DNA of 64,000 nt from Candidatus Poribacteria bacterium (GTDB lineage: Bacteria; Poribacteria; WGA-4E; WGA-3G): contig CBDANF010000003.1 in assembly GCA_965197475.1 (NCBI GenBank), positions 160,001 through 224,000 of the forward strand, written 5' to 3'. This document shows positions 7,601 to 56,850 of this stretch, in pieces; positions within the stretch are counted from its first letter, which is position 1; each line of letters opens with the position of its first letter. The translations under genes were made by a program, and so were the position numbers. Under the pieces are notes generated by a model that was given only the letters and a program-made list of their open reading frames with translations, was not told the origin of the DNA and searched no databases.

Positions 7601-7765
7601 TGCTTTCACCTTTTTTGCACAAACATCAAGTAAGATAGCAAAGGGGTTGCTCACAGCACCTTCGTGGGTGAGGTCATAGTTTTCGTATTGTTGCAGTGCC
7701 TTGTAGTAGTCTTTTATAGGCTTGTGTGTGTATTTAAGATTTAGTTTTTCCATAAGGTTTTCCAT
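4664..7765 (-). CDS. Single-polypeptide restriction-modification enzyme (nuclease + N6-adenine MTase + type ISP-like C-terminal specificity domain)
   Basis: IDG...YWEAKD nuclease-like motif, GIVYTP, DPFVGTG, VIGNPPY, GVSTNRDAWVY, YRPF, LGNRSALEWIIDQY. Confidence 0.85.
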   Translation of the reverse strand: MENLMEKLNLKYTHKPIKDYYKALQQYENYDLTHEGAVSNPFAILLDVCAKKVKATFAPQYPMRTKEGKRIFIDGAIIMNYGLPIAYWEAKDIDDDLPKAIQEKRDKGYPFDNILFQTPERAILFQDEQEVLNTDITDSKNLVEALQYLFSYSDTAFSYWYDAVDKFRDRIPALADKLKKLIEQQHETNTAFKTAFADFYQTCRNAINPDLSQAAVEEMLIQHILTERIFRKVFNMSDFASRNIIAVEIEKVSAVLMQQAVSRDKFLEPLDPFYIAIEQAATRCKDFSEKQHYLNTVYERFFQGFCVKVADTHGIVYTPQPIVDFMVNSVEHLLQDKFSRSLSDTGVHIIDPFVGTGNFIVRLMQDIRTTALENKYQRELHCNEVLLMPYYIANLNIEQEFWQSTGKYLPFKGIVFADTFELFDQAQMSLLSEENTKRVNKQKAEDMFVVIGNPPYNARQESENDNNKNREYKKALDKQIKDTYVKDSNAQLIYNVYDPYVRAFSWASKRIGDCGIVAFVTNNTFIDGIAFDGMRKHLAKEFNALYLFNLGGNILKGQPVDSNVFDIKIGVSIALLLKTGEPIDTPCIFYNNETELQSKAQTFDFLSKHQNASNVKWQKIQPNTRHTWLTKGLQEDFEDLIPVGTKAAKKIKGPVVNGVIFRKFSLGVSTNRDAWVYNFNQDSLHNNVQRTIKTYTAELDRWKREVVEWKRGNVPEPKVNDFVLYDDTKIKWSRDLKRKLKQEKIAEYVDHKTRNSLYRPFTKSNLYFDRIMTDIVSLFPSIFPTREAETENQVICVNVTPEKPFTCLVTNCIPNLVVTGGYGSPNQCFPFFIYNEDGSNRRENITDWALVAFQNHYEDESITKWDIFYYNYGILHHPNYREKYKEDLKRSFPRIPFAENFWVFAEAGKQLADLHVNYETVPKYEGLTLKETPKMPLNWRVEKMALSKDKSQIRYNSFLTLENIPADVFQYKLGNRSALEWIIDQYCVTVDARSKIRNDPNREEEPQYIVDLIARVITVSLETVKIINGLPEK

Positions 7766-7882
7766 TAGTGCTAACTTGTTCCTGATGGATTACAAGAGTC
7801 AACGATCCGAAAAAACAGATATACTTTTTAAATTGATACCTATGATTATAGAACAGTTAAACATTCACCATGTAAACGTATA

Positions 7883-7956
7883 TAATTACTATTCCCTATC
7901 TGCTGCTAACGATTTGAGTTTTGCGAGTGCCTCCTGCTCCTCTGTTTGCCACGGAC
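7883..7956 (-). repeat. Leftover 3' tail of the phyH-like gene (copy of 10633-10706)
   Basis: 66/74 nt identical; encodes PWQTEEQEALAKLKSLAADRE* vs native PWQTEEQEALAKLKSLTADRE*. Confidence 0.95.
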
Positions 7957-7993
7957 AGTGCGCGGGTTTTTCTCATGTTCCTTTTGCATGTAA

Positions 7994-8374
7994 CTAATTT
8001 TCTGCTATCTGTGTCGATGTGTTTTGTGTCTCTAACACATCGGTGTACGCTTCAAGGTTTAGGTTTTCAGGGTCTATCGGTTGGATCGAAAGTTGATAGC
8101 CAAGCACTTTAAGGACAACTGTAAGAACATCAATCAAAGGTGTCCCTTCATTAGATAGGACTTTCGCAAGCACTTGTGGGTCCATATCTGTCTGCTTTGC
8201 CAGTTCAGAAACACCACCCTGCGCTTCAACAACGGTATGGAGAGATCTTAGAACTACTGGCGAATCCTCAAAAATTTGATAGTCTTCAAGGATAGCTTGG
8301 AGATAGTTAATTGCGCTTTCTCTGTCAGCAAGTTTTTCAATAAGGTACTCGCGCCATATTCCCATTTTTCTCAC
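7994..8374 (-). CDS. Addiction module antidote (HTH antitoxin)
   Basis: YLQAILED...[19 protein letters not shown]...LSNEGTP; GTG start overlaps the toxin stop. Confidence 0.8.
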
Positions 8375-8513
8375 TGATGTGTCTCCTTGTATTCTTGCCA
8401 ATATATTTTTGCCCGTTCAATATCACGCGTTTGTGATGACTTGTCTCCACCACATAATAAAAGAACGATTGTGTTCCCTACTTGTCCAAAATAGATTCGA
8501 TAACCTGCTCCAA
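8371..8513 (-). pseudogene. RelE/HigB-type addiction module toxin, 3' half only
   Basis: [39 protein letters not shown]; 5' half replaced by a phyH fragment. Confidence 0.85.
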
Positions 8514-8557
8514 TCCGAGACATCCACATCATCAGTGACCAAGCCATGCACAAGTGG
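8514..8557 (-). repeat. Internal 44-bp fragment of the phyH-like gene (copy of 10859-10902)
   Basis: 38/44 identical with all 6 differences at third codon positions; encodes [14 protein letters not shown]. Confidence 0.92.
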
Positions 8558-8713
8558 AGGACATGGGAGGTCCGCGCAAGCGCGGGAAGAAGTCTTCCTA
8601 AATGAGATATAACATATTAAAAATGGTATAAGCATTATTCTTACGCCAATTCATTTTACAATCAAGGTTCGGTTGGATTTATTGTATTGCATTGTTAGTC
8701 CTTTTATTGCATT

Positions 8714-9184
8714 TTAAAATGTCCATTTTTCTCTTTCCATGAATCCCTGCAAGTTAGTAAATGGAACTCCAAAATGGTCGCAAACATTTGGTATTTTAGG
8801 AGCGTTAGGTTTCTCTTTTTCTTCAGTGACAACACAGCCGTTTATTGTTTTGGCTAAGGCAATGATGAATGGATCGGCACACGGGTATCCAGCTAAGCGA
8901 TTTTTCTCATTTACTAAGTTTTGGAAATGTGGTACCAAGAAAATTTGCCTAACAAAGTGCGTTTCTGCAGCACTCGGTTTCACGAAAATGCTTTTATGCC
9001 GTTTTATCCAATCAGATAAATGAGGACGCCGTGTGTACCGTTGTAGTTCCCTTTCAACTTCCTTTACAGAGATAATCTTTCCATCTTTCACTGTTTGATC
9101 GAAATATTGCCAAAAAGTTGGGAATTGGTTCGGGTAATAATTACCAAGTACACTGAAACTATTGGTGTCAAATACGTAGATCAT
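8714..9184 (-). CDS. DUF4411-family PIN-like protein
   Basis: YVFDTNSF...FPTFW...ADPFIIALA...VVTEE...KIPNVC. Confidence 0.85.
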   Translation of the reverse strand: MIYVFDTNSFSVLGNYYPNQFPTFWQYFDQTVKDGKIISVKEVERELQRYTRRPHLSDWIKRHKSIFVKPSAAETHFVRQIFLVPHFQNLVNEKNRLAGYPCADPFIIALAKTINGCVVTEEKEKPNAPKIPNVCDHFGVPFTNLQGFMEREKWTF

Positions 9185-10341
9185 TTGCGAACTGCCTTTC
9201 TGAGCAGGCAGTCTTCAAGCCCAGATAAATTTTTAACCTTGACGTTTAGATGCTCTGAAAGTTGTTCAATCGTGCATTGCCCCTGGTAAAACTTGCTAAA
9301 GGCAAGTTCCATATATCTCGGACCTAAATATGCTGTTTGCGTATTGTAATAGCCTCCTCCACCTGGAGATTCATCTCCAGTTCTTTGTTCTCTATGTGAT
9401 TCATATAATGCTGTCCATCCCTTTATTTTCTGCAGATAAATTTCATTCGTAAGAATCCCCTTATTGACTAACTTTAACAAAATGACTGGACGACTAACTT
9501 TATAAATACTTGCCAATTTTTCTACAGTATCATCATCGTAATCAGGAAACTTAAGGTGAGATTCTAAGTCATCAGATGGCACAAGAAATTCAGCAGCAAA
9601 TTGGTTACAGAATGTCTCAATTTTTTCACCTGTAGGGTTAATGTCACGGGTAATCCCGTTTTTTCCAAGTAACAGGTGTGCTAATTCATGGAACAAAGTA
9701 AAAATTTGTCGGACTGCTGGTCGACTATTATTGAGATAGATTACTGGAAACACATCATGTACAAGGCAAAATCCATCAACAGAATTATCTTTAAATGCAT
9801 CTTTAAAAATGAAAATACCTTTTTCCTGAATACATTCACGCCAATTTTCCAATGCTTCTGTGGGATTTTTCCAATTTGTTTGTTGGTCGACACTGATGTT
9901 CAGATACACTCGAGTCTGTTTTGCTAATTCCAAAGGTGAATCATTAAGCTGGGCGTGAAAGTCTCTAAAAATTTGATTTTCAGATGGATTTTTACCCAGG
10001 CTGAGTTCCATCAAGGAAAGTTGTCGTGTATAAGCTTGTCGCAATAGAATATGGATTCTCGGTTCTAATTGATCAACGTCAGAACTTCGCAGTGCAAGAT
10101 TCTCAGCAATATTTTCTTCTTCCGGAGGTTCAGGAAAAAAGAAAATAGCTACAGGACGCTTGTACTTATCAGCTAAAGTTTCAAGTTGAGCATAAGTCAG
10201 TGCCAGATTGCCAGACTCACATTCATTGATGAATGAAATATCTTTACTTAAAGTTTTGGCAGCCGCTTCCAAGGAATAACCGGAACGTTCGCGTGCCCAT
10301 TTGAGGATTTCAGGATTAATCCCATCAACATACTCAGCCAT
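9181..10341 (-). CDS. XRE HTH + ImmA/IrrE metallopeptidase fusion
   Basis: INPEILKWARERSG HTH; FTLFHELAH HExxH; E..CNQFAAEFLVP. Confidence 0.9.
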   Translation of the reverse strand: MAEYVDGINPEILKWARERSGYSLEAAAKTLSKDISFINECESGNLALTYAQLETLADKYKRPVAIFFFPEPPEEENIAENLALRSSDVDQLEPRIHILLRQAYTRQLSLMELSLGKNPSENQIFRDFHAQLNDSPLELAKQTRVYLNISVDQQTNWKNPTEALENWRECIQEKGIFIFKDAFKDNSVDGFCLVHDVFPVIYLNNSRPAVRQIFTLFHELAHLLLGKNGITRDINPTGEKIETFCNQFAAEFLVPSDDLESHLKFPDYDDDTVEKLASIYKVSRPVILLKLVNKGILTNEIYLQKIKGWTALYESHREQRTGDESPGGGGYYNTQTAYLGPRYMELAFSKFYQGQCTIEQLSEHLNVKVKNLSGLEDCLLRKAVRK

Positions 10342-13429: not shown

Positions 13430-14737
13430 TTAAACAGTTGACTTTCTCAAAATGAGCAAAAATTCTGACTTCATCCCATCAGGGTTCTTATTCTTCCGCA
13501 CACCGAACAGTTGCCGCGTTTTAATCCTATCTTCATAAACTTTTTCAAACCTGAAACCGCGTTCCGTCCAGTATTCTGTCAATATTCGCCACAGTTCAAC
13601 CGTTATACCATCAATACGTGGATTACCAACGAAAATACAGGCGGCTGCGTTCGGTTTCAATCGATTCATCGAATTTTCAAGTGCGTTTAGCGTATGGCAA
13701 AAATAGGAGTCAAGCCGCTTATGCAAGTCTGTACGAGTGAGTTTTTCCCTGACTTTATCCAATGTTTCGGTGTGAATTGTCCTATCTGCTTTCCGATACG
13801 GGATTTCAAGACGTGATAATGCCTTTATTTCCTCATCAGTGTGTCCTAACCAAAAGAGGTCCATCTTTGTAGAGCGGATATATTCCTGTGCTTGGAGATA
13901 GGGAGGCGATGTGATTAATGCGTCACATTCGCGTGGCACAGTAATGTAAGAGGAATCAACACCTCCCTGAAACTCAACCTGATTTTGATGATGTTGCGTG
14001 TGCATCACAAAGTCGTTAAGGCTTCTTAACGTTTTCAAAGAATGGTCGTACACTATCTCTATTAACTGCTCCTTCCAATTCTCGCTGAGCAATTCTTCTA
14101 TCGCCGCTAATTTACGCTTGGATCTGGCTAATTTTGGCGTTCTATGCTCGGTGTAAGAGAAACGTTTGCTTACCTTCAGCAGTGCCGATTTGATAATACC
14201 GGAATAGATGTCTTGTTCTATGCTGTAGATATAACCCCAGTATTGCGATAAAAACTCCAAAATTTCAGGTGCGTACCAGTATTGGACATTAGACCAAGCG
14301 GGGATAAAACGGTGCTTTTTACTTTCTTTCATGCTGTCAAGCAATTTACATAAATGGTCTTTACACAACCGTTCTTTTCCGCGGTAAACCTTCAGCGGCA
14401 TGATGTGATTCAAAAGTAGGTTGAGATCGAGTAGCACAGCATTGCGTTTGCATAGGGACGCTTCAACGCCCACAGTTCCTGAACCTGCGAACGGATCCAC
14501 AATCCAATCCCCTTCCTTTGTGTAGGTGTTGATTGCATATCTGACGACTTGGGGGATAAATTTCGCAGGATACGATACGATGGCGTGTGTCAAGTAGCCG
14601 GTATCGGAAATTTCTGGCACTAAATCCCGGAACGACACTAATTCCACCGTGTCGGATGTCGCATTCTCTTTCGGGAATCCAAATTCAGTATCTATGGGAA
14701 AAAGCGTGAATTGTTCTTCCAGATTAAGGTTTTTCAT
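13430..14737 (-). CDS. Orphan DNA methyltransferase (N4-C/N6-A class)
   Basis: YPAKFIPQ, DPFAGSGT, ITSPPY. Confidence 0.85.
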   Translation of the reverse strand: MKNLNLEEQFTLFPIDTEFGFPKENATSDTVELVSFRDLVPEISDTGYLTHAIVSYPAKFIPQVVRYAINTYTKEGDWIVDPFAGSGTVGVEASLCKRNAVLLDLNLLLNHIMPLKVYRGKERLCKDHLCKLLDSMKESKKHRFIPAWSNVQYWYAPEILEFLSQYWGYIYSIEQDIYSGIIKSALLKVSKRFSYTEHRTPKLARSKRKLAAIEELLSENWKEQLIEIVYDHSLKTLRSLNDFVMHTQHHQNQVEFQGGVDSSYITVPRECDALITSPPYLQAQEYIRSTKMDLFWLGHTDEEIKALSRLEIPYRKADRTIHTETLDKVREKLTRTDLHKRLDSYFCHTLNALENSMNRLKPNAAACIFVGNPRIDGITVELWRILTEYWTERGFRFEKVYEDRIKTRQLFGVRKNKNPDGMKSEFLLILRKSTV

Positions 14738-37527: not shown

Positions 37528-37808
37528 TGGTAAAATTGACTTGTTTTTCAATTATACTCCTGATTTTGTTTGCTGTATCGGGTTACATTCTCACGCGTCC
37601 TGGTCGTTCTTCAGTCCCAACACAGTTTTCAAAATCTGTGTCTGCTGTTGTCTCAACTACGAGGCAAGACACAGTGAAAAAATGTAAGTGTTGCACATTG
37701 GAGGAATTGCGTAAAAAGCTTAGATCTAGACACAAGAATATGCAGACAGCACCCAATAGTCGGAATCACAATATTGGAAATAAAAGCAGAGCACTAGATA
37801 AACTTTGA
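37527..37808 (+). CDS. Small membrane-anchored Cys-Cys protein
   Basis: N-terminal TM, KKCKCCTLEELRKK. Confidence 0.65.
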   Translation: MVKLTCFSIILLILFAVSGYILTRPGRSSVPTQFSKSVSAVVSTTRQDTVKKCKCCTLEELRKKLRSRHKNMQTAPNSRNHNIGNKSRALDKL

Positions 37809-39543
37809 AAAATATAAAATTATTCTCTACCCTATCGCAACAGACCGTCCGTTCTGCTGCGGGGGTTTTTCTCATTGTGTGCTTCTTTTTCATTGTGAAC
37901 AGTCCGCGTCTCCTCTCTTTAGATGCACATTGGTCAAGTGATGAAGCGCGTTGGCTTCGTCGTAGTGCGGCGTTTATGGATACTGTTGAGCAGGGACGCT
38001 TTTCAGAAACCCTGATTGCGTATCATCCGGGCGTGATGACGATGTGGGTTACTGGGCTTCGTGCCTTTTTTAGTCCTCCGCGATTGGATGCCCTAAACCT
38101 TGTTCTCGCTCGGTGGTTCATCGGTATTGTCATATCAGTTGGCATCGGTATTGCCTGCCTTTTAGTTTATAGACTCTTTGGACGGTGGGTAGCACTTATA
38201 AGTTTCGCGTGTCTCGCCTACTCACCACTTTTTTTAGCACAAACACGGCGTGTCCACACGGACGCGCTTGCCACCGTTTTTATCCTTTTAACAGTACTAC
38301 TTCTCTTGTTGTACTGTGAGAATCGGCAACACCGTCGATATCTTATCTTTTCAGGCATCGCTTTTGGATTGGCGGTCTTGAGCAAGAGTTACGCCTTGAT
38401 ACTTTTAATCTGGGTGCCATTCTGTATCTTTCTATATCGCCCCTCTCAACAGAAAATCGGAGGTCGCTTTTCCGTGTACGTTGCCGAAATCCTCTGTTTT
38501 CTCAATTGTACGTTACTTACCGTGCTCGCTGTCTGGCCTATTTTTTGGGCACCCTTTTTTGGAATCTTGGCACTATGTTTTTTAGGTCTCACCTTTGTTC
38601 TATACAACGCGATAAAAAACGAACATTGCCCTTTTGCTCTCATAGCAATAGCAGGTGCCGGACTGATTCTTGTCGGGTTCATGCAACCCAAACCGTCTGG
38701 CTTATTTTGGATAAAGTTGGTTGGGCAGTTACAACACCGCACGAAGTGGAACACTTCTTTCTCGGAAAAGTGGCTAATGATCCAGGATGGCTTTTCTATC
38801 CTTTTGTGTTGACTATCAACAGCACGCCGTTGATGCTGCCACTCGTATTTCTCGGATGTTTTCTCCTTTGGAAGTATCGGAAAAATTCAGCGGAAATATC
38901 TAAGCATTTCAAACTTATACTTGCTTTAGTAAGTGTAGTTATCCTCTTCACCGTGTGCCTTTCACTCACAAGCAAAAAGTTCAGTCGATACTTGCTGCCT
39001 GTTTTCCCGATATTGGAAATTCTTGCTGCCGTCGGGTTCGTGGAGTTAATCCGCTGGAGTTATGCGTATTTCAAGATTGAGACAATTGGTGTTAAACGTA
39101 CACTTGCTGGATTCGCATGCCTATGTTTCTTTTTCATTCAGATATTACCTGTACTCATGTTACACCCCTATTACGGCACCTATTACAACCCCTGTTGGAA
39201 AGTGACAGACATTACAAAGATAATCACTGTAGGAGATGCCTCTGGCTTGGATATCGCAGCGAACTATTTGAATCAAAAACCGAATGCGCGCCGCATGCAG
39301 GTACAGGTATCCCCGTTATCAACAACGTTGGTAAGATTTTATTTTCACGGACATGCCTATCGTGCAGATAGACGCATTTCGCAAACACCCGATTATGAAA
39401 TCGTTTATATCCGAGATTCACAAGTAGGGCGCGTTCCACAAACAGGCACTCTAAATGGTGAACTTGAACACGTTATAACTCTTAACGGTATTGACCACGT
39501 TTGGATTTACCGCATCCCAAATAAGGAAAATCCTAACGGGTAA
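37805..39543 (+). CDS. ArnT/GT39-like membrane glycosyltransferase (frameshift at about 38675)
   Basis: SDE, YHPG, HTD, LSK, RYLLP; the frames join if one G is added to a G run. Confidence 0.75.
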
Positions 39544-43041: not shown

Positions 43042-43070
43042 TTGACATGAAAGAGAGAATATGCTATAAT
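43042..43070 (+). promoter_or_regulatory. Consensus sigma70 promoter upstream of guaB
   Basis: TTGACA-17-TATAAT with extended -10 TG. Confidence 0.8.
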
Positions 43071-43299: not shown

Positions 43300-44817
<1,518 letters not shown>

Positions 44818-44857
44818 ACTATTGAGACTCAGTAAGTCAAGCAAAGGGAGAAAAACG

Positions 44858-45961
44858 ATGAAAATCCGTATTGAAATCCTCACAACTTTACTATTGACGA
44901 CCGTTACTCTGCTCGCTGGCTGCTCTGGCTGCGGACAGAAAACCGCCCCCGAACACGCAGACCCTTATAACCAAGCAGAACACGGACCCGTCGCGGCGAA
45001 TAGCCGAAAGCCCGTAAAACTAACCATTGTTGAACCGAGTTTTGAGAGACTGATAGAACAGTTCAAAGCAGATGTCACTGAAAATAAGGGGGACCCAGAG
45101 ATGCTCAAACGCAAAAGAAAAGCAATTGCCAACCCCGATATACTGTGGGATGGCATCGGATTTGAGGTGCCCCCCACACTAAATTTCGATGAAATCCCAA
45201 GACTGCCGGGCTACAATCCAACACGCGATAAGATAAAAGTCCGCTCTTATTCTGAAAAAGGAAAACCTATACACGGGGTCTATGATCATGACAAAGAAGT
45301 GTATCCTTTTGCGGGCAAAGTTATCTACAAAACAAAAGATCAAGAGGAGAGGTTGGATGCTGTACGGCAAAACTGGAGGCATTTGAATCCAAATTCCGAC
45401 CCAGATGATACTAACTACTATCGAAAACGTGCTCCGATTGTGTATGAGGGAATAGATACACTCATTGCTGCAAAACATCTGAGTCAAGCGTTTAGCCCTG
45501 CTAAAAAAGCTCTTGGCGTTGAATATGCGGAGCGTGCAATACGTGAAAATCCGAACTCTGTTGAAGCGATGCGTATTTGGGTCAAATGCCATCCTGAAGA
45601 TCAAAAGATTGAGGCATACCAACAGCTGCTTTCAAAGTTCCCCAACGATGCGTTTGCTCACGAGCAAATCGCCGGCTACTACTACCGCGAAGAAGATACG
45701 GTTTCCGCCCTGGACCACATGCTGAAGGCTTGTCTGTTAGATAGTCGTATCGCGAAAACGAATGACTTATTAGCCAAATGTTATTTCAAACTCAGTGAAT
45801 GGGAGAAAGCCGTTGCTGCGTATCAGGGCATGGATTATTTTGTCAGTCCGAATTTTCTCTTTGAGAGTCCTGACAAAATAACTAAAGCCAAAGATGAGGT
45901 GCATAAGCAGCGAAAAGGGTATTCAGTTATAGAATTAACACAAGAAGGATATGACAAATGA
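44858..45961 (+). CDS. Variable TPR lipoprotein A1
   Basis: Lipobox LLAG-CSGC; C-terminal TPRs; paralog of A2-A4. Confidence 0.85.
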   Translation: MKIRIEILTTLLLTTVTLLAGCSGCGQKTAPEHADPYNQAEHGPVAANSRKPVKLTIVEPSFERLIEQFKADVTENKGDPEMLKRKRKAIANPDILWDGIGFEVPPTLNFDEIPRLPGYNPTRDKIKVRSYSEKGKPIHGVYDHDKEVYPFAGKVIYKTKDQEERLDAVRQNWRHLNPNSDPDDTNYYRKRAPIVYEGIDTLIAAKHLSQAFSPAKKALGVEYAERAIRENPNSVEAMRIWVKCHPEDQKIEAYQQLLSKFPNDAFAHEQIAGYYYREEDTVSALDHMLKACLLDSRIAKTNDLLAKCYFKLSEWEKAVAAYQGMDYFVSPNFLFESPDKITKAKDEVHKQRKGYSVIELTQEGYDK

Positions 45962-46101
45962 AATATCGCATTTCTGTTTTGACATTGTTTAGTGTGCTGA
46001 ATCCGTCCGCTGCGGATGGTCCACCGAGTGTTTCTATAGAGTCAGCGAATTTGGATGCGTATAATGGGTGGTTACCGAGAAAGCCATCCGCACGATATTG
46101 A
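45958..46101 (+). pseudogene. 5' stub of secreted protein B, type 1
   Basis: MKYRISVLTLFSVLNPSAADGPPSVSIESANLDAYNGWLP, then runs out of frame into the guaB tail. Confidence 0.7.
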
Positions 46102-46150
46102 TATTACGGAGGAAGCACCGAACTATACGGTTGCTAACCTTGCTACATAA
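46070..46150 (+). repeat. guaB 3' tail copy 1 (81 bp, matches 44737-44817); similarity continues through the intergenic spacer
   Basis: Encodes [26 protein letters not shown]. Confidence 0.95.
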
Positions 46151-46190
46151 ACTGTTGAGACTCAGCAAGTCAAGCAAAAGGAGAAAAACA

Positions 46191-47300
46191 ATGGAACTTC
46201 GTATAGAAAAGTTCTTAACTTTATTTATGATCGCGATTATATTCCTCGCGGGTTGTTCGGGGTGTGCACAAAAAAACGCTCTAAAAGGGATTGAACCGAC
46301 CAAGGATTACAACGAACAATCTAAATACGGACCGGTCGCAGCGAACACGCGCAAACAGGCAAAACTAAAGCCTTTCCTTGAACCGAGTTTTGAGAACCTT
46401 ATAGAACAGTTCAAAGCCGATGTCAAAGCCAACCGCGGTGACCCTGAAGTCCTCGCTCGCAAAAAACAGGCGATAAAGAACCCTAATTTGCTATGGCGAC
46501 CTTCATTTCGAGTCCCGAAAAAAAACAGGCAAAATCCGAGAACTTATCCTGAATATAATCCCTCTGCCGACGAGATCAGAATCCTAACCCATAATAAAAA
46601 AGGGGAACCATTACGCGCCAGATATTTCGATCATCCAGGTGTTCCTAACGGTCTTGAGATTGAATTCACAGGCAAAGCCTATTACCTCACGAAAGAACAG
46701 GAAGAAAGAATGAAATTAGTTTTACATTCAGACGATCTTCCACAAGATGAGCGACAACGTGAATATTATAAAATTATGTTTGAGGGTATAAATACGTTTA
46801 CAGCTGCAAAGTATTTGAGCAAAGAGACTTCCAGTATTGCAGAAACCATAGGTCTTGAATACGCTGAACGTGCCATGCGCGAACACCCAAACTCTCTTGA
46901 AGCTATGCATCTTTGGGCTAAATGCGTTCCATGGGAACCTATAGAAAATAAAAGAGATGCGTATGAAAAGTTATTGACGAAGTTTCCTAACGATGCCTCA
47001 GCACATTCTATACTTGGTTTCATATATTGGTCTCGTCTGGACTCTCCTGAGTTAGCCATCCCGCATTACCAAAAATCTATTCAACTTGATAGTCGTGGCG
47101 AAGCTGGCAAAAAGCATTGGTTAGCTTTCTGTTATGAGAAACTTGGAGAATATGAGAAAGCGGTCGCAGTCTATCAGAGCATCTCTGTAGTAGACACATA
47201 CGGTCCTCGTGGTTATATGATCCCTATGTCATTAAATTACGTACAAGACGTGGTATATAAACAACGAACAGGTCGTTCCTTTTATGACTTAGACGATTAG
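46191..47300 (+). CDS. Variable TPR lipoprotein A2
   Basis: Lipobox FLAG-CSGC; EPSFENLIEQFKADV, EYAERAMREHPNS, TPRs. Confidence 0.85.
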   Translation: MELRIEKFLTLFMIAIIFLAGCSGCAQKNALKGIEPTKDYNEQSKYGPVAANTRKQAKLKPFLEPSFENLIEQFKADVKANRGDPEVLARKKQAIKNPNLLWRPSFRVPKKNRQNPRTYPEYNPSADEIRILTHNKKGEPLRARYFDHPGVPNGLEIEFTGKAYYLTKEQEERMKLVLHSDDLPQDERQREYYKIMFEGINTFTAAKYLSKETSSIAETIGLEYAERAMREHPNSLEAMHLWAKCVPWEPIENKRDAYEKLLTKFPNDASAHSILGFIYWSRLDSPELAIPHYQKSIQLDSRGEAGKKHWLAFCYEKLGEYEKAVAVYQSISVVDTYGPRGYMIPMSLNYVQDVVYKQRTGRSFYDLDD

Positions 47301-47311
47301 GAGGGTATTGA

Positions 47312-47758
47312 ATGAAAAAATACTATCTCACAATTTTACTTTTCACATTACTCCCGTTTGCACACGCACAAAACGTCTGTATAGAACCAATGTGGGACAC
47401 GTTTAATCAGTGGTTGCCTGAAGATGGGGACACGGTCACTTTTCTTGTGACCGTCTCGGAGGCAAGGTCCAAAGGGTCGATTGTATTAAATCTGACCAAT
47501 GTATCTACTTGGGAAGGGACATGCATGAACAAAGGGACAGGCGACGATGCTGATCTATACTTTACCAGAACAGATCAGGTATTAGCGGGTAGGATTCGTT
47601 CTGCTATGGGATATTGTGGCACGCCAGATATTGAGTCGTTACGCAGAGATGTCCAATTTGTCCGTATGTCAAGCAGCGGTTACAGAGAAAGCCATCCGCA
47701 CGATATTGATATTACGGAGGAAGCACCGAACTATACGGTCGCTAACCTGAACACATAA
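47312..47758 (+). pseudogene. 5' stub of secreted protein B, type 2, fused in frame to the last 55 codons of guaB
   Basis: Signal peptide ...FAHAQNVCIEP..WLP..; from 47592 IRSAMGYCG...VANLNT*. Confidence 0.85.
47592..47758 (+). repeat. guaB 3' tail copy 2 (167 bp, matches 44651-44817)
   Basis: 7 nt differences, 5 of them synonymous. Confidence 0.97.
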
Positions 47759-47798
47759 ATTGTTGAGACTCAGTAAGTCAAGCAAAGGGAGAAAACCG

Positions 47799-48897
47799 AT
47801 GAAAATCCGTATTGAAATCCTCACAACTTTACTATTGACGACCGTTACTCTGCTCGCTGGCTGCTCTGGCTGCGGACAGAAAACCGCCCCCGAACACGCA
47901 GACCCTTATAACCAAGCAGAACACGGACCCGTCGCGGCGAATAGCCGAAAGCCCGTAAAACTAACCATTGTTGAACCGAGTTTTGAGAGACTGATAGAAC
48001 AGTTCAAAGCAGATGTCACTGAAAATAAGGGGGACCCAGAGATGCTCAAACGCAAAAGAAAAGCAATTGCCAACCCCGATATACTGTGGGATGGCATCGG
48101 ATTTGAGGTGCCCCCCACACTAAATTTCGATGAAATCCCAAGACCGCCGGGCTACAATCCGACACGCGACGAGATAGTCATCCGCTCTCCTTTTGAAAGA
48201 GGTAAACCTATACGCGGGGTCTATCATCCCTGTGGAACATGACAAAGAAATATATCCTTTCGCTGGAAAAATTATCTACATCACAAAAGAGCAAAAGGAA
48301 AGGAAGGATGCTGCGCGCCAAAACTGGCATAATGCGAATCCGAACTCAAGAGCGGATGTTGACTATTACCGAGAACAGTATGCGATTACATTTGAAGGAA
48401 TAGACACACTCACAGCAGCAAAATATTTGAGTCAATTCAGTGATCCTAATCATCCCAGCACAAAAATTATCGGCATTGAATATGCAGCGCGTGCGATGCG
48501 TGAGCATCCGAACTCTGTTGAAGCGATGCGTATTTGGGTCAAATGCCATCCTGAAGATCAAAAGATTGAGGCATACCAACAGCTGCTTTCAAAGTTCCCC
48601 AACGATGCGTTTGCTCACGAGCAAATCGCCGACTACTACTACCGCGAAGAAGATACGGTTTTCGCCCTGGACCACATGCTGAAGGCTTGTCAGTTAGATA
48701 GTCGTATCGCGAAAACGAATGACTTATTAGCCAAATGTTATTTCAAACTCAGTGAATGGGAGAAAGCCGTTGCTGCGTATCAGGGCATGGATTATTTTGT
48801 CAGTCCGAATTTTCTCTTTGAGAGTCCTGACAAAATAACTAAAGCCAAAGATGAGGTGCATAAGCAGCGAAAAGGGTATTCAGTTATAGAATTATAG
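47799..48897 (+). CDS. Variable TPR lipoprotein A3 (frameshift in a C run at about 48230; last codons cut by IS630)
   Basis: Both ends near-identical to A1, middle divergent. Confidence 0.8.
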
Positions 48898-49801
48898 TAA
48901 ATCCCGTAATTACTTATACACTTTTATAATATCATCAATAGAAGTCTGAGCATTATATTGACGTATCCGCTTGATGTTGGCGAAATCCTTCTCAATCGGA
49001 TTCAACTCCGGTGAATACGGCGGTAAAAACAACAAACTCGCACCGCAATCCCGGATCAATGCTGCCGTCTGTGAACCTTTGTGGAAAGACGCATTATCCA
49101 TAATCACAACATGGCTATCGTCAAGCAATGGACACAACATTTCCGAAAGCCAACTGTTGAAGGCGATCACATCGCAACTGCCCTTGAAAAGCACAGGTGC
49201 TGTGAAACATCCATCAAGCCGTGCCGCAATCAGCGTCGTGGTGGTATACCGATGGCTTGGCACTTTATCTTCAACACGGACACCTTTCGGGCATAAGCAT
49301 ACCGACGGAAAGTGGTTTCAGTGAAACCACTTTCGTCAAGATAAACCGGTTTTTTGCCATGCTCCTGTGTCTCTTGTTGAAGTGCCGAAAGATACTCTTG
49401 GCGTTTTATCGGACACTGTTCTTTGTAGGTCGTTGTCTTTTTTTTCGCGTAATATTGAGTTTTGAGAAGGCATAAAAGATGCCGTTTGTTGAAACACCGA
49501 AGTGTTTGGCACGTTCGGCGAGTGTGCTATCGGGAAAATCGGCAACATGTTATTGAAGCGCATCATAATCAATGTGTCGGGGCCCTTTGGGACCCGGCTT
49601 CTCATAGGCAAAGGGGTTTTCTGCTTCTAACCAGTTATAGATCGTCCTTCTTGAGACACCGAAGGTGCGTTCTGCGGCGGCTTTACTGCCACCATTATTG
49701 ATGAAATCAAGCACGCTTTTGCGTCCATCTGTTGAATATGCCATAATCATAAAGGCTAACATAAATCACAGAAAATGTAAACTTATTTTCAGGATCTACT
49801 A
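48895..49801 (-). mobile_element. IS630-family element, probably defective
   Basis: Imperfect 26-bp IRs tagtaaatcc.../...ggatctacta; TA duplication at 48893-94 and 49802-03; MAYSTD..., LDESGF, MDNASFH, LPPYSPELNPIE; A8G slippery site at about 49440; in-frame TAA at 49550. Confidence 0.92.
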
Positions 49802-49823
49802 TAAGACAAGAAGGATATGACAA

Positions 49824-49967
49824 ATGAAATATCGCATTTCTGTTTTGACATTGTTTAGTGTGCTGAATCCGTCCGCTGCGGATGGTCCACCGAGTGTTTC
49901 TATAGAGTCAGCGAATTTGGATGCGTATAATGGGTGGTTACCGAGAAAGCCACCCTCACGATATTGA
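49824..49967 (+). pseudogene. 5' stub of secreted protein B, type 1 (second copy)
   Basis: Matches 45958-46069 with the same junction. Confidence 0.75.
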
Positions 49968-50016
49968 TATTACGGAGGAAGCACCGAACTATACGGTTGC
50001 TAACCTTGCTACATAA
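49936..50016 (+). repeat. guaB 3' tail copy 3 (81 bp)
   Basis: Same as copy 1 except CAT CCG changed to CAC CCT (both His-Pro). Confidence 0.95.
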
Positions 50017-51172: not shown

Positions 51173-51482
51173 ATGAAAAATTATTATCTCACTATTTTAT
51201 TTTTACTGTTTACATCACTCCCGTTTGCCCACGCACAAAACGTCTGTATAGAACCGTTAAATAAAACAGAGTTTAATGCGTGGCTACCTGAAGATGGGGA
51301 CACGGTCACTTTTCTTGTGACCGTCGCAGGTGCCCAATCCACAGGTTCCATCGAGTTAAATCTTACCAATGTATCTACTTGGGAAGGGACATGCATGAAC
51401 AAAGGGACAGGCAACGATGCTGATCTATACTTTACCAGAACAGATCAGGTATTAGCGGGTAGGATTCGTTCTGCTATGGGAT
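51173..51482 (+). pseudogene. 5' stub of secreted protein B, type 2, plus the start of guaB tail copy 4 (51462-51482), cut by IS3
   Basis: MKNYYLTILF...WLPEDGD...DQVLAG-RIRSAMG. Confidence 0.85.
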
Positions 51483-51561: not shown

Positions 51562-51852
51562 ATGGCGAAACGAAAACGAAGAAACTTCACCCCCGAGTTT
51601 AAAGCCGAAGTTGTTCTTGAGGCTCTCAGCGTTGAAAGTTCCCAAGCAGAAGTGTGTCGGCGACATAACCTCATCGATGAACAACTTTCAAAGTGGAAGC
51701 GACAGCTTCTTGAAAAAGCGGCGACCCTCTTTGAACCCGCTGATAAACAGTCTGATGCCTCTGCGGAGCGGATCGCCCAACTTGAGCAACTCGTTGGGCG
51801 GTTGACCTTGGCACTTGACATCCAAAAAAAAGCCTCAACTTACTTGAGTTAG
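51562..51852 (+). CDS. IS3 transposase OrfA
   Basis: RRNFTPEFKAEVVLE HTH. Confidence 0.9.
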   Translation: MAKRKRRNFTPEFKAEVVLEALSVESSQAEVCRRHNLIDEQLSKWKRQLLEKAATLFEPADKQSDASAERIAQLEQLVGRLTLALDIQKKASTYLS

Positions 51853-51857
51853 CCTCG

Positions 51858-52688
51858 ATGGAGCAGCGAGAAATGGTTACGGCATTACGGACAGACTTTT
51901 CGGTTCGGCAGATATGTGAGACACTCGGTTTCAACCGAAGCAACCTCTATTATCACTCCAAGCAGGCCCCGTGTGAAGCGGGCCTCCAGGATGAAATAGA
52001 GACGTTATCTTTGCTATATCCAACATACGGATATAGGCGTCCCACACAGTTGTTGGTGCGTAACGGATACACCATCGGGTATAAACGTGTTGCCCGATTG
52101 ATGAAGTCCGCCAACCTCTCGGTTTCTGTCAAGCGTGTCTGTCAAACCACGACATCCGTTGCGGGTGTGCGTCCCTGGAGCAATCGCCTTGAAAACCTTG
52201 ATGTCTCCCGATGTAATCAGGTCTGGGTGGGCGATATTACCTACGTCCGCCTCAAAGGACACTTTATCTATGTTTGTCTGCTCATGGATGTCTTCACTCG
52301 CATGATCAGAGGGTGGCATATCAGTCAACACTTGACGCAATCTCTGACGTTGAAACCCTTGGAGACAGCATTATGTCAAAGTGTCCCAGAGATCCATCAT
52401 TCTGATCAAGGCGTTCAATATCTTTCAAATGCGTCCATCTCACTGCTTAGGCATCATGGGATTGAGATTTCAGTCGCCCGGAGAGGGTGTCCTTGGGAGA
52501 ACGGATATGCTGAAAGACTTATCCGCACGCTCAAGGAAGAAGAAGTTCATCTCAATGACTATGAGGACATCCACGAAGCAAGAACCCGCATTGGGCATTT
52601 TATTACACAAGTGTATAATCACAAACGCCCTCACTCTGCGTTAGGGTATTTGACACCTGTGGAATTTGAGCAAAAAAACTTGTCTTAA
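51858..52688 (+). CDS. IS3 transposase OrfB (rve integrase core)
   Basis: YGYRR, WVGDITY, HHSDQGVQY, ENGYAER, YNHKRPHSALGYLTP. Confidence 0.93.
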   Translation: MEQREMVTALRTDFSVRQICETLGFNRSNLYYHSKQAPCEAGLQDEIETLSLLYPTYGYRRPTQLLVRNGYTIGYKRVARLMKSANLSVSVKRVCQTTTSVAGVRPWSNRLENLDVSRCNQVWVGDITYVRLKGHFIYVCLLMDVFTRMIRGWHISQHLTQSLTLKPLETALCQSVPEIHHSDQGVQYLSNASISLLRHHGIEISVARRGCPWENGYAERLIRTLKEEEVHLNDYEDIHEARTRIGHFITQVYNHKRPHSALGYLTPVEFEQKNLS

Positions 52689-52727
52689 CTTTGCTAAATT
52701 TTGGTCTGAATAAACGGTAGCACTTCA

Positions 52728-53014
52728 TTATGTTTACCATTAATAATATAAATTTTTATATCATTATTAGCTAATCGTTTTAGTTTAAAGGTTTTAGATC
52801 CGAATCCATTTCGTATCATTTCACTACGATAAAAATCTTGAGTTCCTTTCATCCACTTAATTATATCGTCTTTCATTTTCTCAATAGGAGGTGCATCTGT
52901 AGGCCTAAAATAGATTGTATTAACTACAAAAGATTCTTGTGAATGGACATTTATAGATATACCTATAAATAATATAACTAAAAGATAAAGTAATTTTTTA
53001 AATTGATTTTGCAT
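52728..53014 (-). pseudogene. AT-rich secreted protein gene truncated at its 3' side by IS3
   Basis: Signal peptide, VNTIYFRPTD...QDFYRSEMIRNGFGSKTF; the ORF runs into the IS end. Confidence 0.7.
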
Positions 53015-53017
53015 ATT

Positions 53018-54243
53018 TTATTGCTCCGAGTCAATTAAAGCCTGATAGGTAAACCTCCTGAATTGCCCTTGAAAAGGATAACGGTTATTGAGAATCTGCG
53101 TCATCAGAATTCCTATGAGTTCTTTTTCGGGGTCAACCCAAAAGTTAGTAGCAGCTAAACCACCCCCACTGAGTGATCCATGCGACCGTTTATTTTTTAC
53201 GTTATTCTCACGCGTAACAACATGGAATCCAAATCCGAAAGCCCCTCCTTCTCTGTGATATTGTTGATGTGGATAACGCATCAGTTCAACGGTCTTGGTC
53301 TTTAAAATGTGCACACCTTCCAATTCACCACCATTGAGTAACATCTGACAGAAACGGAGGTAATCCGCAGCAGTAGAAACAAGCCCACCACCACCAGAAG
53401 GAAGAAAGTGACGTTATCGGTTGCAAGCGGAGGTTTTCCGACAAGTTTTAGTCCACCTTCTTCAGTAGGTCTATATATAGCCGCAAATCGTTCTACTTTT
53501 GTTTGTGGCACCGAAAACCCAGTATCTATCATGCCGAGTGGTTTAAAAATCTTCGTCTGTAAAAATTCTTCAAACGGCATTTCCGAAACTACCTCTACAA
53601 GATAACCGAGAACATCCGTAGAAACACCGTATTTCCATCTTTTACCGGGTTCGAAAACAAGCGGGATATCACTAAGTTTCTCTACCTTCTCTGCTAACGT
53701 TGAATCACGTTCAAATACTTTCAATTTGGCGTAAAGTTTATCAATAGGTCTGTCGCCCCACCCGTAAGTCAATCCGGAAGTATGCGTGAGTAGATGCTTG
53801 ATCGTCATCTTATTCTTAGCGTCATGTGTTTCTGTCTGCTCATTGTTAAAAACCTTCATGTCTTTGAATGCGGGAATATAGTTTTCAACAGGATCATCAA
53901 GTTTAATATACCCCTCATCGTAGAGTATCATCACAGCAACGCTGGTAATCGGTTTCGACATTGAATAGATACGGAATATCGTATCCGCTTCAACCGGTTT
54001 TTTATTTTCAACATCTCGCATGCCGATGGTCTCAAAATGTGCAATTTTCCCTTTCCTCGCGATGACAGTAAGGAATCCTGGTAGTTGTCCTTTGTCGACG
54101 TAGCCTTGCAGGACCAGACGGATACGTTCCAGACGTTCGGAAGAAACACCAACATCTTCCGGCTCTGCCATCGGGAGTCCCTGTGCAAATGCGAGTGCAG
54201 TGATACAAAATAGCAGTAAAAGTAAGCACGTTAATCGTTTCAA
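53018..54243 (-). CDS. Class C beta-lactamase-like serine hydrolase (frameshift at about 53401)
   Basis: FRIYSMSK, LLTHTSG, PGKRWKY; adding one C restores PSGGGGLVSTAADYLRF. Confidence 0.85.
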
Positions 54244-55543: not shown

Positions 55544-56850
55544 CTATGCCTGCGGGGGTGTTAGTAGCATTACGGCGATGTCTTCTGGGATTTAACGTTA
55601 TGTTTCTGCTCAAAGTCGGCAATGCTATCATAATGCCCAAAGAATTCAATTATTATACCTTCTTTTGCATCCTTTGTCTCCACGAAGTCCGATCTAAATT
55701 TTTCCCATTCGTGAAGGTTTAGCCAAATCCAACACCGATTACGATATGCATTTGCCTATTCAGCATTTATTTTTATTGCTTTGTCATAGTTTTTGATTGC
55801 AAGTTCAACTTTTCCTTTTTTAAGATAAGCTAAACCAAGGTTATTATGTGCCTCAGCTAAATTAGGATTAAATTGTATCGCTTTCTTAAAATATTTAATC
55901 GCACGATCATACTGACCTTTTTTGCCGTAACTTTTACCGAGATTTGTGTAGGTTTTAGCATCATTGGGCTTGAGTCGTATTGCTTTATTCAAATCCTTGA
56001 TGGCACAGTTTAACCTGCCCTTATTGTTGTAAGCATTTCCACGATTAGTATAAGCTTTGGCTAAATCCGGATCCAGTTGTATCGCTTTAGTATAGTTCTT
56101 GAAAGCATGGCCAACATGACTTTTCATGTCATAAGCAACGCCGCGATTGTAATATACCTCAGCATCGTTGGGGTTGAGTTGTATTGATCTGTTAAAATCT
56201 TTGATAGCAAGATCATGTTCACCCTTTACACCGTAAGCAACACCGCGATAATTATAAGCTCCAGCATTTTTCGGGTTCAGTTCAATTGCACGGGAATAAG
56301 CTGCAATTGCTCTATCAAATTGCTTTAGCATCATCATGAAATTACCCTTTTCTACTATCCAATAAGACAATATCTTAATTTCTTCCGATGCTATAGTAGG
56401 TGAAGGTTGTAGCTGAGATTGCATTTCTTCAACGACTTTTCGAATACCATCTACTACACTTTTCCAACCTTTACTTTCTGGCTGCCATTCGTTAATTGGC
56501 TTGACTCCTTCAGGAAGTGCCTGAAATTCGCTGAGTTGGTGGTTTTCCCAATCGCAATGCTCAAGGATAATCGGAATCACTCTTATATTTGGATTTAACG
56601 CAGCAGTCAATTCCTTATTGCAATTTTCAGAAGCAAGACTATACGGACAAGTAAGGTAGAGCAGAATGTCCGAATCGGCAAGGTTGGTGAAAATTGCATC
56701 CCGCCATTTGTCTCCGGGTAAAATTTCGTTGTCGTGCCAGACATCAATTAAACCATTTTGCTTCATTACAGCAAGGTAAGTAATTAATTTGTCCTTTGCT
56801 TCGGTATTTTTATGCGCGTAGGTAATGAAAACCTTTAATCCTTTACTCAT
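55544..56850 (-). CDS. TIR-domain + TPR protein; premature TAG at 55756 cuts off the C-terminal tail
   Basis: KVFITYAHKN..VWHD.EILPG..W..SLASENCNKE..VIPIIL; TPRs; reading continues ANAYRNRCWIWLNLHEWEK after the stop. Confidence 0.85.

Follow-up and report, generated by a model that had tools for sequence, protein, structure and literature searches.

The window analysed here, a stretch of 64,000 nucleotides from a Candidatus Poribacteria bacterium (assembly GCA_965197475.1, contig CBDANF010000003.1, positions 160,001 to 224,000 of the forward strand), carries an array of four units 3′ of an intact guaB gene, which encodes IMP dehydrogenase. Each unit comprises a guaB 3′ fragment (hereafter tail), a gene for a lipoprotein with tetratricopeptide repeats (TPR; gene A) and the 5′ stump of a gene for a large secreted protein (gene B). 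A 23-nucleotide core of the guaB end is present in four copies in the 64 kb (44776, 46109, 47717 and 49975) and was never found in 100 shuffles, and a guaB motif lying further upstream has three copies in the window, one each in guaB, tail 2 and a fourth stub at 51461. Overall, the array consists of a block of two units that has been duplicated, the period being 2941 nucleotides (nt). Beyond the IS3 element that ends it, neither the remainder of tail 4 nor a full-length B gene was found. No strong consensus promoter other than the one listed in Table 1 lies ahead of the array, and no terminator-like site was seen on the + strand between the array genes; the guaB promoter probably drives the whole array.

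Table 1. Features of guaB and the array downstream of it (positions in the window).
Feature	Position	Strand	Remarks
Sigma-70-like promoter upstream of guaB	43042..43070	+	TTGACA-17-TATAAT, 12 of 12, TG extension; consensus match only
guaB, IMP dehydrogenase, intact, 503 aa	43306..44817	+	Last 230 nt (44588-44817) are the segment copied in the tails
A1, TPR lipoprotein, 367 aa	44858..45961	+	LAGC, presumed lipobox
B1f, first ~37 codons of a B-family gene	45958..46069	+	Cut at "WLP"; protein 100% identical to three L001 copies
Tail 1, guaB 44737-44817	46070..46150	+	Junction J1; ends NLAT; 7-bp microhomology GGTTACC at 46070-46076
A2, TPR lipoprotein, 369 aa	46191..47300	+	MELRIEK type; 47% identity to A1, 99% to an L001 copy
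B2 fragment, 5′ ~90 codons of the large B gene	47312..47581	+	Signal peptide and N-domain; in frame with tail 2
Tail 2, guaB 44641-44817	47582..47758	+	Junction J2; 10 differences from the resident gene, 7 silent-type; Pfam IMPDH match, E=2.1e-9
A3, A1-type gene	47799..48897	+	One extra base at 48233 breaks the frame; last codons clipped by the IS630 insertion
IS630-family element, decayed, 907 bp	48895..49801	-	TA target duplication, broken transposase frames; Pfam DDE_3, HTH_Tnp_IS630
B1f′, second copy of the B1 fragment	49824..49935	+	
Tail 3	49936..50016	+	Junction J1; ends NLAT; CAC CCT where tail 1 has CAT CCG
A4, TPR lipoprotein, 343 aa	50057..51088	+	First ~45 codons as in A2; remainder ~40-45% identical
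B3 fragment, 5′ ~93 codons of a B gene	51173..51451	+	J2 junction as in B2
Tail 4 stub, 31 nt, guaB 44641-44671	51452..51482	+	Truncated by the IS3 element
IS3-family element, array end	51483..~52727	+	orfA 51562-51852, orfB 51858-52688; Pfam rve

The joints between the units fall into a small number of types. At junction J1, the B sequence TGGTTACC is joined to the guaB sequence CGGTTACC with 7 nt in common; at J2, about 3 nt (approximately CAG) are common to both partners. A third type, J3, has guaB attached at GCGGG to the opening 14 codons of another gene and was found in L001, a 21-kb piece of a 6.07-Mb Poribacteria chromosome (OZ244616.1) that has the same architecture as the window, with five tails and identical J1 junctions. 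L002, also of this architecture, has its joint at about guaB 44590, behind a mid-gene fragment of a long B gene. The tails thus begin at 44737 (J1), 44641 (J2), ~44588 (J3) or ~44590 (L002) of guaB, with a different upstream partner each time, and the head-to-tail arrangement of units, with a novel distal-to-proximal joint at a microhomology, was found at the joints of both the window and L001. Seven short open reading frames (ORFs) elsewhere fuse a foreign start to the guaB end (P0179, P0181, P0182, P0183, P0186, P0187 and P0204; found among 38 matches and read from 15 sequences). They add three joint positions (P0182; P0183 and P0186; P0204), which brings the total to at least seven junction types, all in the last ~95 guaB codons. 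P0179 is an uninterrupted fusion of a B3-type fragment and a tail in another assembly, and the P0183 and P0186 fusions are heavily decayed, more so than the tails of the window. Individual junctions recur across assemblies: J1 three times in L001, J2 in P0179, and J3 in P0181 and P0187.

Genes of the A family were found at nine loci in species-representative genomes, all of them contigs of uncultured metagenome-assembled genomes, eight assigned to Candidatus Poribacteria and one (L009) to an "uncultured bacterium". Positions 9880-12474 of L001 are 97.5% identical to 44737-47331 of the window, and the A2 copies of the two differ by a dS of 0.009. DNA matches between the window and L001 are confined to the array, with no shared flanks; in one of these genomes, either the array or guaB has changed place. 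In L009 (1-1731), the intact guaB is preceded by an A gene and a 28-codon B stump, and a copy of the promoter-like region upstream of guaB stands ahead of the A gene; the duplicated segment can therefore begin beyond guaB. L004 has an array of A-B units that holds no guaB sequence at all.

A preliminary description of the locus, made from the window sequence, had counted seven differences between tail 2 and guaB over 167 bp (44651-44817), and re-comparison gave exactly this number: GCA/GCT, TGC/TGT, TCT/CCA (2 nt, Ser/Pro), CGA/CGT, CGA/AGA and ACT/ACG. Tail 2 in fact starts about 10 nt earlier, at 47582 (guaB 44641), which adds TTG/TTA (silent) as well as V447A and G449R at the junction, so that three of the differences over its full length are not silent. 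The reported relation of tails 1 and 3 was likewise exact: the junction is the same and the two changes that make up their sole difference (Table 1) are both silent in the guaB frame, which taken alone is weak evidence (chance about 0.05-0.1). The same description had held that the internal copies are not translated in the guaB frame, and this applies better to some of them than to others. The J1 junction opens a 31-codon ORF through the tail in the guaB frame (MRIMGGYRESH...; 46055-46150 and 49921-50016), with in-frame ATGs at the junction (46055 and 46064 for tail 1) and no obvious ribosome site, so that non-translation of tails 1 and 3 is likely but not proven. Tail 2 forms a 148-residue ORF with the upstream B2 fragment (47312-47758) and may therefore well be translated in the guaB frame.

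A larger sample was obtained by pooling eight sequences, namely the window guaB, tails 1-3 and the L001 tails Ta, Tc, Td and Te; the remaining L001 tail, Tb, was excluded as it has a 1-nt deletion and is unreadable in frame. Third codon positions of guaB hold 28 of the 38 minimal changes in this pool (p=4.3e-7 against an expectation of 1/3), and a null that allows one lineage to stay functional (0.385 silent) is still rejected (p=2.4e-6). When the 38 changes are classified as single steps, 29 are synonymous and 9 non-synonymous, with synonymous sites making up only 22%. Tail 2 carries six silent-type changes per 36.3 silent sites and one per 125.7 non-silent sites relative to the resident guaB (pS ~0.17, pN ~0.01), and Ta differs from the window guaB by 18 silent-type and three other changes (pS 0.36, pN 0.02). 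As a control, the comparison of two genuine genes, A3 and the L001 gene Aa, distributes its 55 differences over the codon positions as 14, 17 and 24, which is far flatter. The argument that neutral decay would not respect the guaB frame, put forward earlier on a handful of changes, thus holds in the enlarged sample: the codon-periodic variation means that the tails bear the imprint of a working guaB and not of the neutral decay of a copy of the resident gene. Had one partner of each comparison drifted, about 20-30 non-silent changes would be expected; the tails carry 1-3, so most of the divergence arose while both partners worked.

The direction of change could be read from intact guaB genes elsewhere. 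The guaB of L005, from another species, encodes a protein with 88% amino-acid identity to that of the window, and tail 2 has the L005 base at six of the seven positions at which it differs from the resident gene. Of 39 intact Poribacteria-like guaB representatives, 29 have the Pro460 that tail 2 encodes, all of the five closest among them; the Ser460 of the resident guaB occurs in seven of the 39 and in none of the five closest. It is therefore the resident gene that is unusual. Replacements that occur only in tails (Y444F, R466C, R466H and P434S) are absent from all 39 intact proteins and read as genuine decay hits, which are few.

Divergence is also distributed in blocks along the array, with identities from 100% (330 nt of A1 and A3) down to less than 50% (the bodies of A2 and A4). 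Over about 330 nt, A1 (44858-45190) and A3 (47799-48131) are 100% identical, and the tails just upstream of them differ by 4-7%; the identical stretch looks like a very recent gene-conversion tract that begins at the start codon. A1 is a patchwork of L001 copies, in which blocks with a pS of 0 lie beside blocks with 0.3. A3 is ~98% identical over its first 960 nt to the intact L001 gene Aa, which follows tail Ta, and the preceding tails differ at 7% of positions and have different junction types. The conserved 5′ cassette of tail, spacer and signal peptide is 90-100% identical between units, the A bodies 40-47%, and conservation of the 40-nt spacer, including its ribosome site, extends to other species. 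The J1 joint is followed either by a haplotype that ends in NLAT and precedes an A2-type gene (tail 1, tail 3 and Te) or by one that ends in NLNT and precedes an A1-type gene (Td). As one joint is combined with two haplotypes, a crossover must have taken place inside the 72-bp tail (44737-44808). In all nine cases that are readable in the window and L001, the haplotype of the tail end matches the type of the A start that comes next. Divergence among the copies is not uniform, as neutral drift would have it, but patchy, from 100% to less than 50% identity between blocks, and the non-functional tails vary almost only at silent sites; allele exchange is therefore needed on top of duplication.

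Whether the tails act as landing pads for incoming A alleles, as had been suggested, is a separate matter, and here only part of the suggestion stood. The crossover inside the J1 tail speaks for such a use, if only indirectly. Most mosaic breakpoints, however, lie at the A start or inside A, and the A-B arrays of L004 have no tails. This makes the tails, in the main, passive scars of the junctions, which contribute homology, and no dedicated device.

We put the probability that the tails derive from functional guaB alleles of other lineages at about 0.6, judging from the sequence comparisons above. Descent from, or overwriting by, such alleles had been proposed at the outset, and the codon-periodic variation, the L005 bases in tail 2 and the distribution of Pro460 all support the proposal. 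Because nearly all differences of the tails, whether to the resident gene or among themselves, fall on silent sites, the bulk of the divergence would have built up in working guaB genes; as these would have belonged to separate lineages, DNA from other lineages would have entered. The tails would then be young copies of divergent, once-functional guaB ends that lost their function only recently. Each unit reaches from a point within the last ~230 nt of guaB to one within the 5′ portion of B or of a gene next to it. The units are evidently joined head to tail at short microhomologies, each joint leaving a guaB tail and a B stump as scars, and the arrays would have grown by repeated addition of such segments. 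Later remodelling by unequal crossing-over and gene conversion between conserved stretches is likewise evident from the block pattern; these stretches are the tail, the 40-nt spacer, the beginning of A with its signal peptide, and the 3′ end of A along with B1f. Guided by homology within guaB, diverged lineages would have exchanged guaB ends together with the adjacent A genes, and the old guaB end would have been pushed inward, or copied, only recently. The likeliest route of addition would be one homologous crossover in guaB combined with one illegitimate joint, that is, homology-facilitated illegitimate recombination; alternatively, the tail of an incoming array may have recombined out of register with the resident guaB end. 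The tails themselves would have no function of their own and would merely provide extra homology.

Several observations weigh against this reading. No intact guaB with the full silent haplotype of any tail was recovered, L005 giving the one complete intact 3′ end that was compared as DNA, and no intact allele was found that combines the full haplotype of a tail with the matching A type, the check named in the preliminary description; the C-terminal NLAT occurs in only one of the 39 intact representatives, a distant one (P0073). The guaB of L005 ends in NLNT, yet an A2-like gene comes next, so the linkage between tail and A type is not universal. The L001 array has no adjacent intact guaB within its 21 kb, being flanked by queG (-) on one side and, after an insertion sequence, by pheA (-) on the other, and the array of this genome thus gives no evidence of growth at guaB. 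Because B2 and tail 2 share a reading frame, this one copy may be under selection as a translated protein. A single event could lie behind the two non-silent differences at the J2 junction, and another behind a 4-nt cluster (CTGAAC to CTTGCT); not all of the 38 pooled changes, then, are independent. Lastly, CCC484 is found in three of four L001 tails and CCG in three of four window copies, a hint of homogenisation within each genome; overwriting inside the genome may still contribute.

This last point leads to the alternative of a purely in-genome history, in which microhomology-mediated tandem duplications were followed by overwriting of the tails by the cell's own guaB, the differences being snapshots taken over time. 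Gene conversion is active in the array, as the identical stretch of A1 and A3 and the ~98% identity of ~780 nt around tails 1 and 3 indicate, the shared CCC484 fits, and the tail-free arrays of L004 demonstrate duplication without a guaB handle. We nevertheless regard this history as rather unlikely. With a pS between ~0.17 (tail 2) and 0.36 (Ta) it predicts the ~20-30 non-silent tail changes that are missing; NLAT tails are still linked to A2-type genes in two genomes and have not been homogenised to the resident NLNT; and at six of seven sites it is tail 2 that looks ancestral and the resident end that looks derived.

It is less probable still that the tails are remnants of complete second guaB copies, whereby whole units of guaB, A and the B 5′ part would have been duplicated, with both guaB copies under selection for a long time before deletions from B into guaB left only the tails. 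A duplication endpoint beyond guaB, as in L009, would suit such units, but none of the nine loci has two intact guaB genes, and a redundant copy is unlikely to be held at a dN/dS of ~0.05-0.1 until pS reaches 0.2-0.4. At least seven independent deletions would moreover all have to end in the last ~95 codons.

A role of the tails in their own right, either as translated peptides and fusions such as B2::tail or as an RNA or translation-coupling element for the next A gene, would also account for conservation, and the in-frame fusion of tail 2 (similar ones are annotated in other assemblies), the in-frame ATGs at J1 and the retention of the spacer with its ribosome site across species could be cited for it. 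We consider it very improbable: the J1 and J3 tails do not share the reading frame of the ORF ahead of them, the P0183 and P0186 fusions have decayed and Tb has lost a nucleotide, and an RNA role would not produce third-position periodicity. None of the 27 pairs predicted by RNAalifold shows a compensatory change. A known RNA element in the tail or spacer was rejected, as Rfam returned only a sub-threshold match to an irrelevant lncRNA inside the IS3 element. A promoter inside the tails is not supported either, no tail site reaching 10 of 12; promoter-like sites numbered 21, against a mean of 14.9 (sd 4.1) in shuffles.

Site-specific accretion, in which integrase-bearing islands insert at the guaB 3′ end and each brings a replacement end, would leave direct repeats of the target-gene end between cargo units and let newer arrivals push older ones inward, as in tycheposons, but is barely credible here: the repeats measure 81, 177 and ~230 nt, their boundaries lie at unrelated microhomologies with no common core, and the units are only 1.3-1.6 kb long and consist of A and a broken B stump. 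No tyrosine or serine recombinase was found by Pfam in 48 ORFs of the window (8 in the array and 40 others), only the IS630 and IS3 transposases; none stands out in the ORF lists of L001 and L002, and none of the six ORFs scanned there with Pfam is a recombinase. An integrase or site-specific element was rejected on these grounds, and a tRNA-linked island because the window has no tRNA gene. An assembly artefact that wrongly strings together strain variants of one guaB-A locus is similarly remote: the source is evidently a metagenome-assembled genome and repeats this similar are hard to assemble, but the B::guaB junctions are structural novelties that mis-joined alleles could not create, and the same junctions recur in independent assemblies (L001, P0179, P0181 and P0187).

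If the tails do stem from guaB alleles of other lineages, the route by which they arrived can be compared with known processes. Homology-facilitated illegitimate recombination is reportedly known from transformation experiments. As a rule such an event removes recipient DNA and does not duplicate part of the anchor. The geometry fits: a crossover in guaB, foreign A sequence, and a joint into the recipient at 3-7 bp of microhomology. The locus does have microhomology joints, and a foreign origin would accord with the silent divergence of its tails; a donor allele was not found. Variable surface-lipoprotein families with a conserved 5′ cassette are known from mycoplasmas (vlp, vsp) and Borrelia (vmp). 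The array resembles them in its tandem paralogous lipoprotein genes with conserved upstream region and signal peptide, divergent bodies and recombination among copies, and differs in that every A copy points the same way downstream of guaB, with all of them apparently transcribed as one unit. Neither an invertible promoter nor a homopolymer tract that could act as a phase-variation switch was seen, although no search of inverted repeats or repeat tracts was aimed at switches.

The nearest analogues appear to be orphan rhs/cdiA modules and tandem island accretion. For the former, PMC3967940 describes a repeated conserved stretch that provides homology for recombination between the main gene and its fragments, with content exchanged between strains. 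As in orphan rhs-CT/cdiA-CT modules, fragments that repeat conserved sequence of a full-length gene lie downstream of it, and what comes after them differs from one fragment to the next; guaB has four tail copies in the window and five in L001. Here, however, the handle is the end of a housekeeping enzyme gene that is constant in protein sequence, the cargo is a separate TPR-lipoprotein gene and not a C-terminal domain of the same ORF, and recombination with a tail would leave the guaB-encoded product unchanged. Neither a toxin continuation nor an immunity gene of the rhs/CDI kind was found, the tails ending at the guaB stop with a near-invariant protein and Pfam giving no toxin or immunity family. 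Island accretion at the 3′ end of a tRNA or other gene, as in tycheposons, also places partial target copies between successive cargo units, and newcomers are proposed to push older units inward (bioRxiv 10.1101/2020.12.28.424599). Unlike tycheposons, the locus has no integrase and no fixed attachment core, its joints lie at variable microhomologies, and its units are tiny and carry the broken stump of a downstream gene. It thus fails the defining tests of both orphan rhs/cdiA modules and integrase-mediated island accretion and is a displaced-fragment array, a variant of known systems. No description of this locus was found in the literature collection consulted.

Gene A belongs to a narrow family, with 58 database matches, 45 of them with E<1e-85 and the next at 1.6e-13. 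We take the LAGC motif of A to be a lipobox. Pfam found only TPR repeats in A and nothing in the B stumps. An AlphaFold model of A (38 family members) reached a pLDDT of 86. The structures matched by the C-terminal half of the model are generic TPR ones, with designed consensus TPR proteins at the top (E=2.6e-5), and the N-terminal half matched no solved structure. With such generic matches only, the fold was uninformative as to the function of A. Positive selection on A gave no signal, dN/dS being 0.24-0.53 with no 60-codon block above 1. The B genes of the window are 5′ stumps whose start continues, in L005 and L002, into secreted proteins of 1127 and 1030 residues, respectively. Full-length B combines three fibronectin-III domains with an Ig-like domain, and an HExxHxxGxxH zinc motif can be made out by eye; nuoI is the next gene. 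The order in L005 is intact guaB, A, long B and nuoI, and the comparison shows this arrangement, with the large secreted fibronectin-III/Ig protein B between A and nuoI, to be the ancestral state. Proteins with TPR and fibronectin domains are discussed in general terms as candidates for host interaction in Poribacteria in PMC3909097.

Other genes of the window include a further TPR protein, which has an N-terminal TIR domain followed by many TPR repeats (55756-56850, -). Beside the IS3 element, a serine beta-lactamase-family gene is spread over three consecutive ORFs (106, 108 and 313 residues; 52694-54243, -) and is probably a pseudogene. A probable defence cluster lies at 4664-10341 (-), with a Type ISP restriction-modification enzyme (1033 residues), a DUF4411 protein and a Peptidase_M78/HTH protein; a further DNA methylase is encoded at 13430-14737. 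Upstream of guaB, two long ORFs overlap at 37805-39543 (+), the first for a PMT_2-type glycosyltransferase, and may represent a frameshifted gene or a programmed overlap.

A wider hypothesis may be built on the derivation of the tails from foreign guaB alleles, although we offer it tentatively and consider it doubtful as a whole. In Poribacteria, the end of guaB, an essential gene, could serve as a portable homology handle by which cassettes of guaB end, spacer and TPR-lipoprotein gene pass between diverged lineages through ordinary homologous recombination, with no integrase involved. Arriving cassettes would push working ends inward, so the stack of tails would be a dated record of guaB alleles and of the order in which host-interaction lipoproteins were acquired, and the internal tails would multiply the entry points and make the locus a self-reinforcing hotspot.

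Codon-periodic variation in a non-coding gene fragment offers a general test for recent membership in another lineage's working gene, and in uncultured sponge symbionts it reveals recombination between lineages where no mobile-element gene is present. Some caution is due with arrays of this kind, as gene callers label the tails as short "IMP dehydrogenase" proteins (88-165 residues in P0181-P0187 and P0204) and assemblers may break at them. For the biology of Poribacteria, the locus indicates that a family of secreted TPR lipoproteins is being expanded and reshuffled, and that the adjacent large fibronectin-III/Ig gene has been drawn into the same events. Such "eukaryote-like" proteins have long been suspected of a part in host interaction, and the mechanism suggested here for their diversification is one of recurrent microhomology joints and recombination beside a housekeeping gene. 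Should population data confirm this, the stack of tails would serve as a record of the sequence of acquisitions at the locus.

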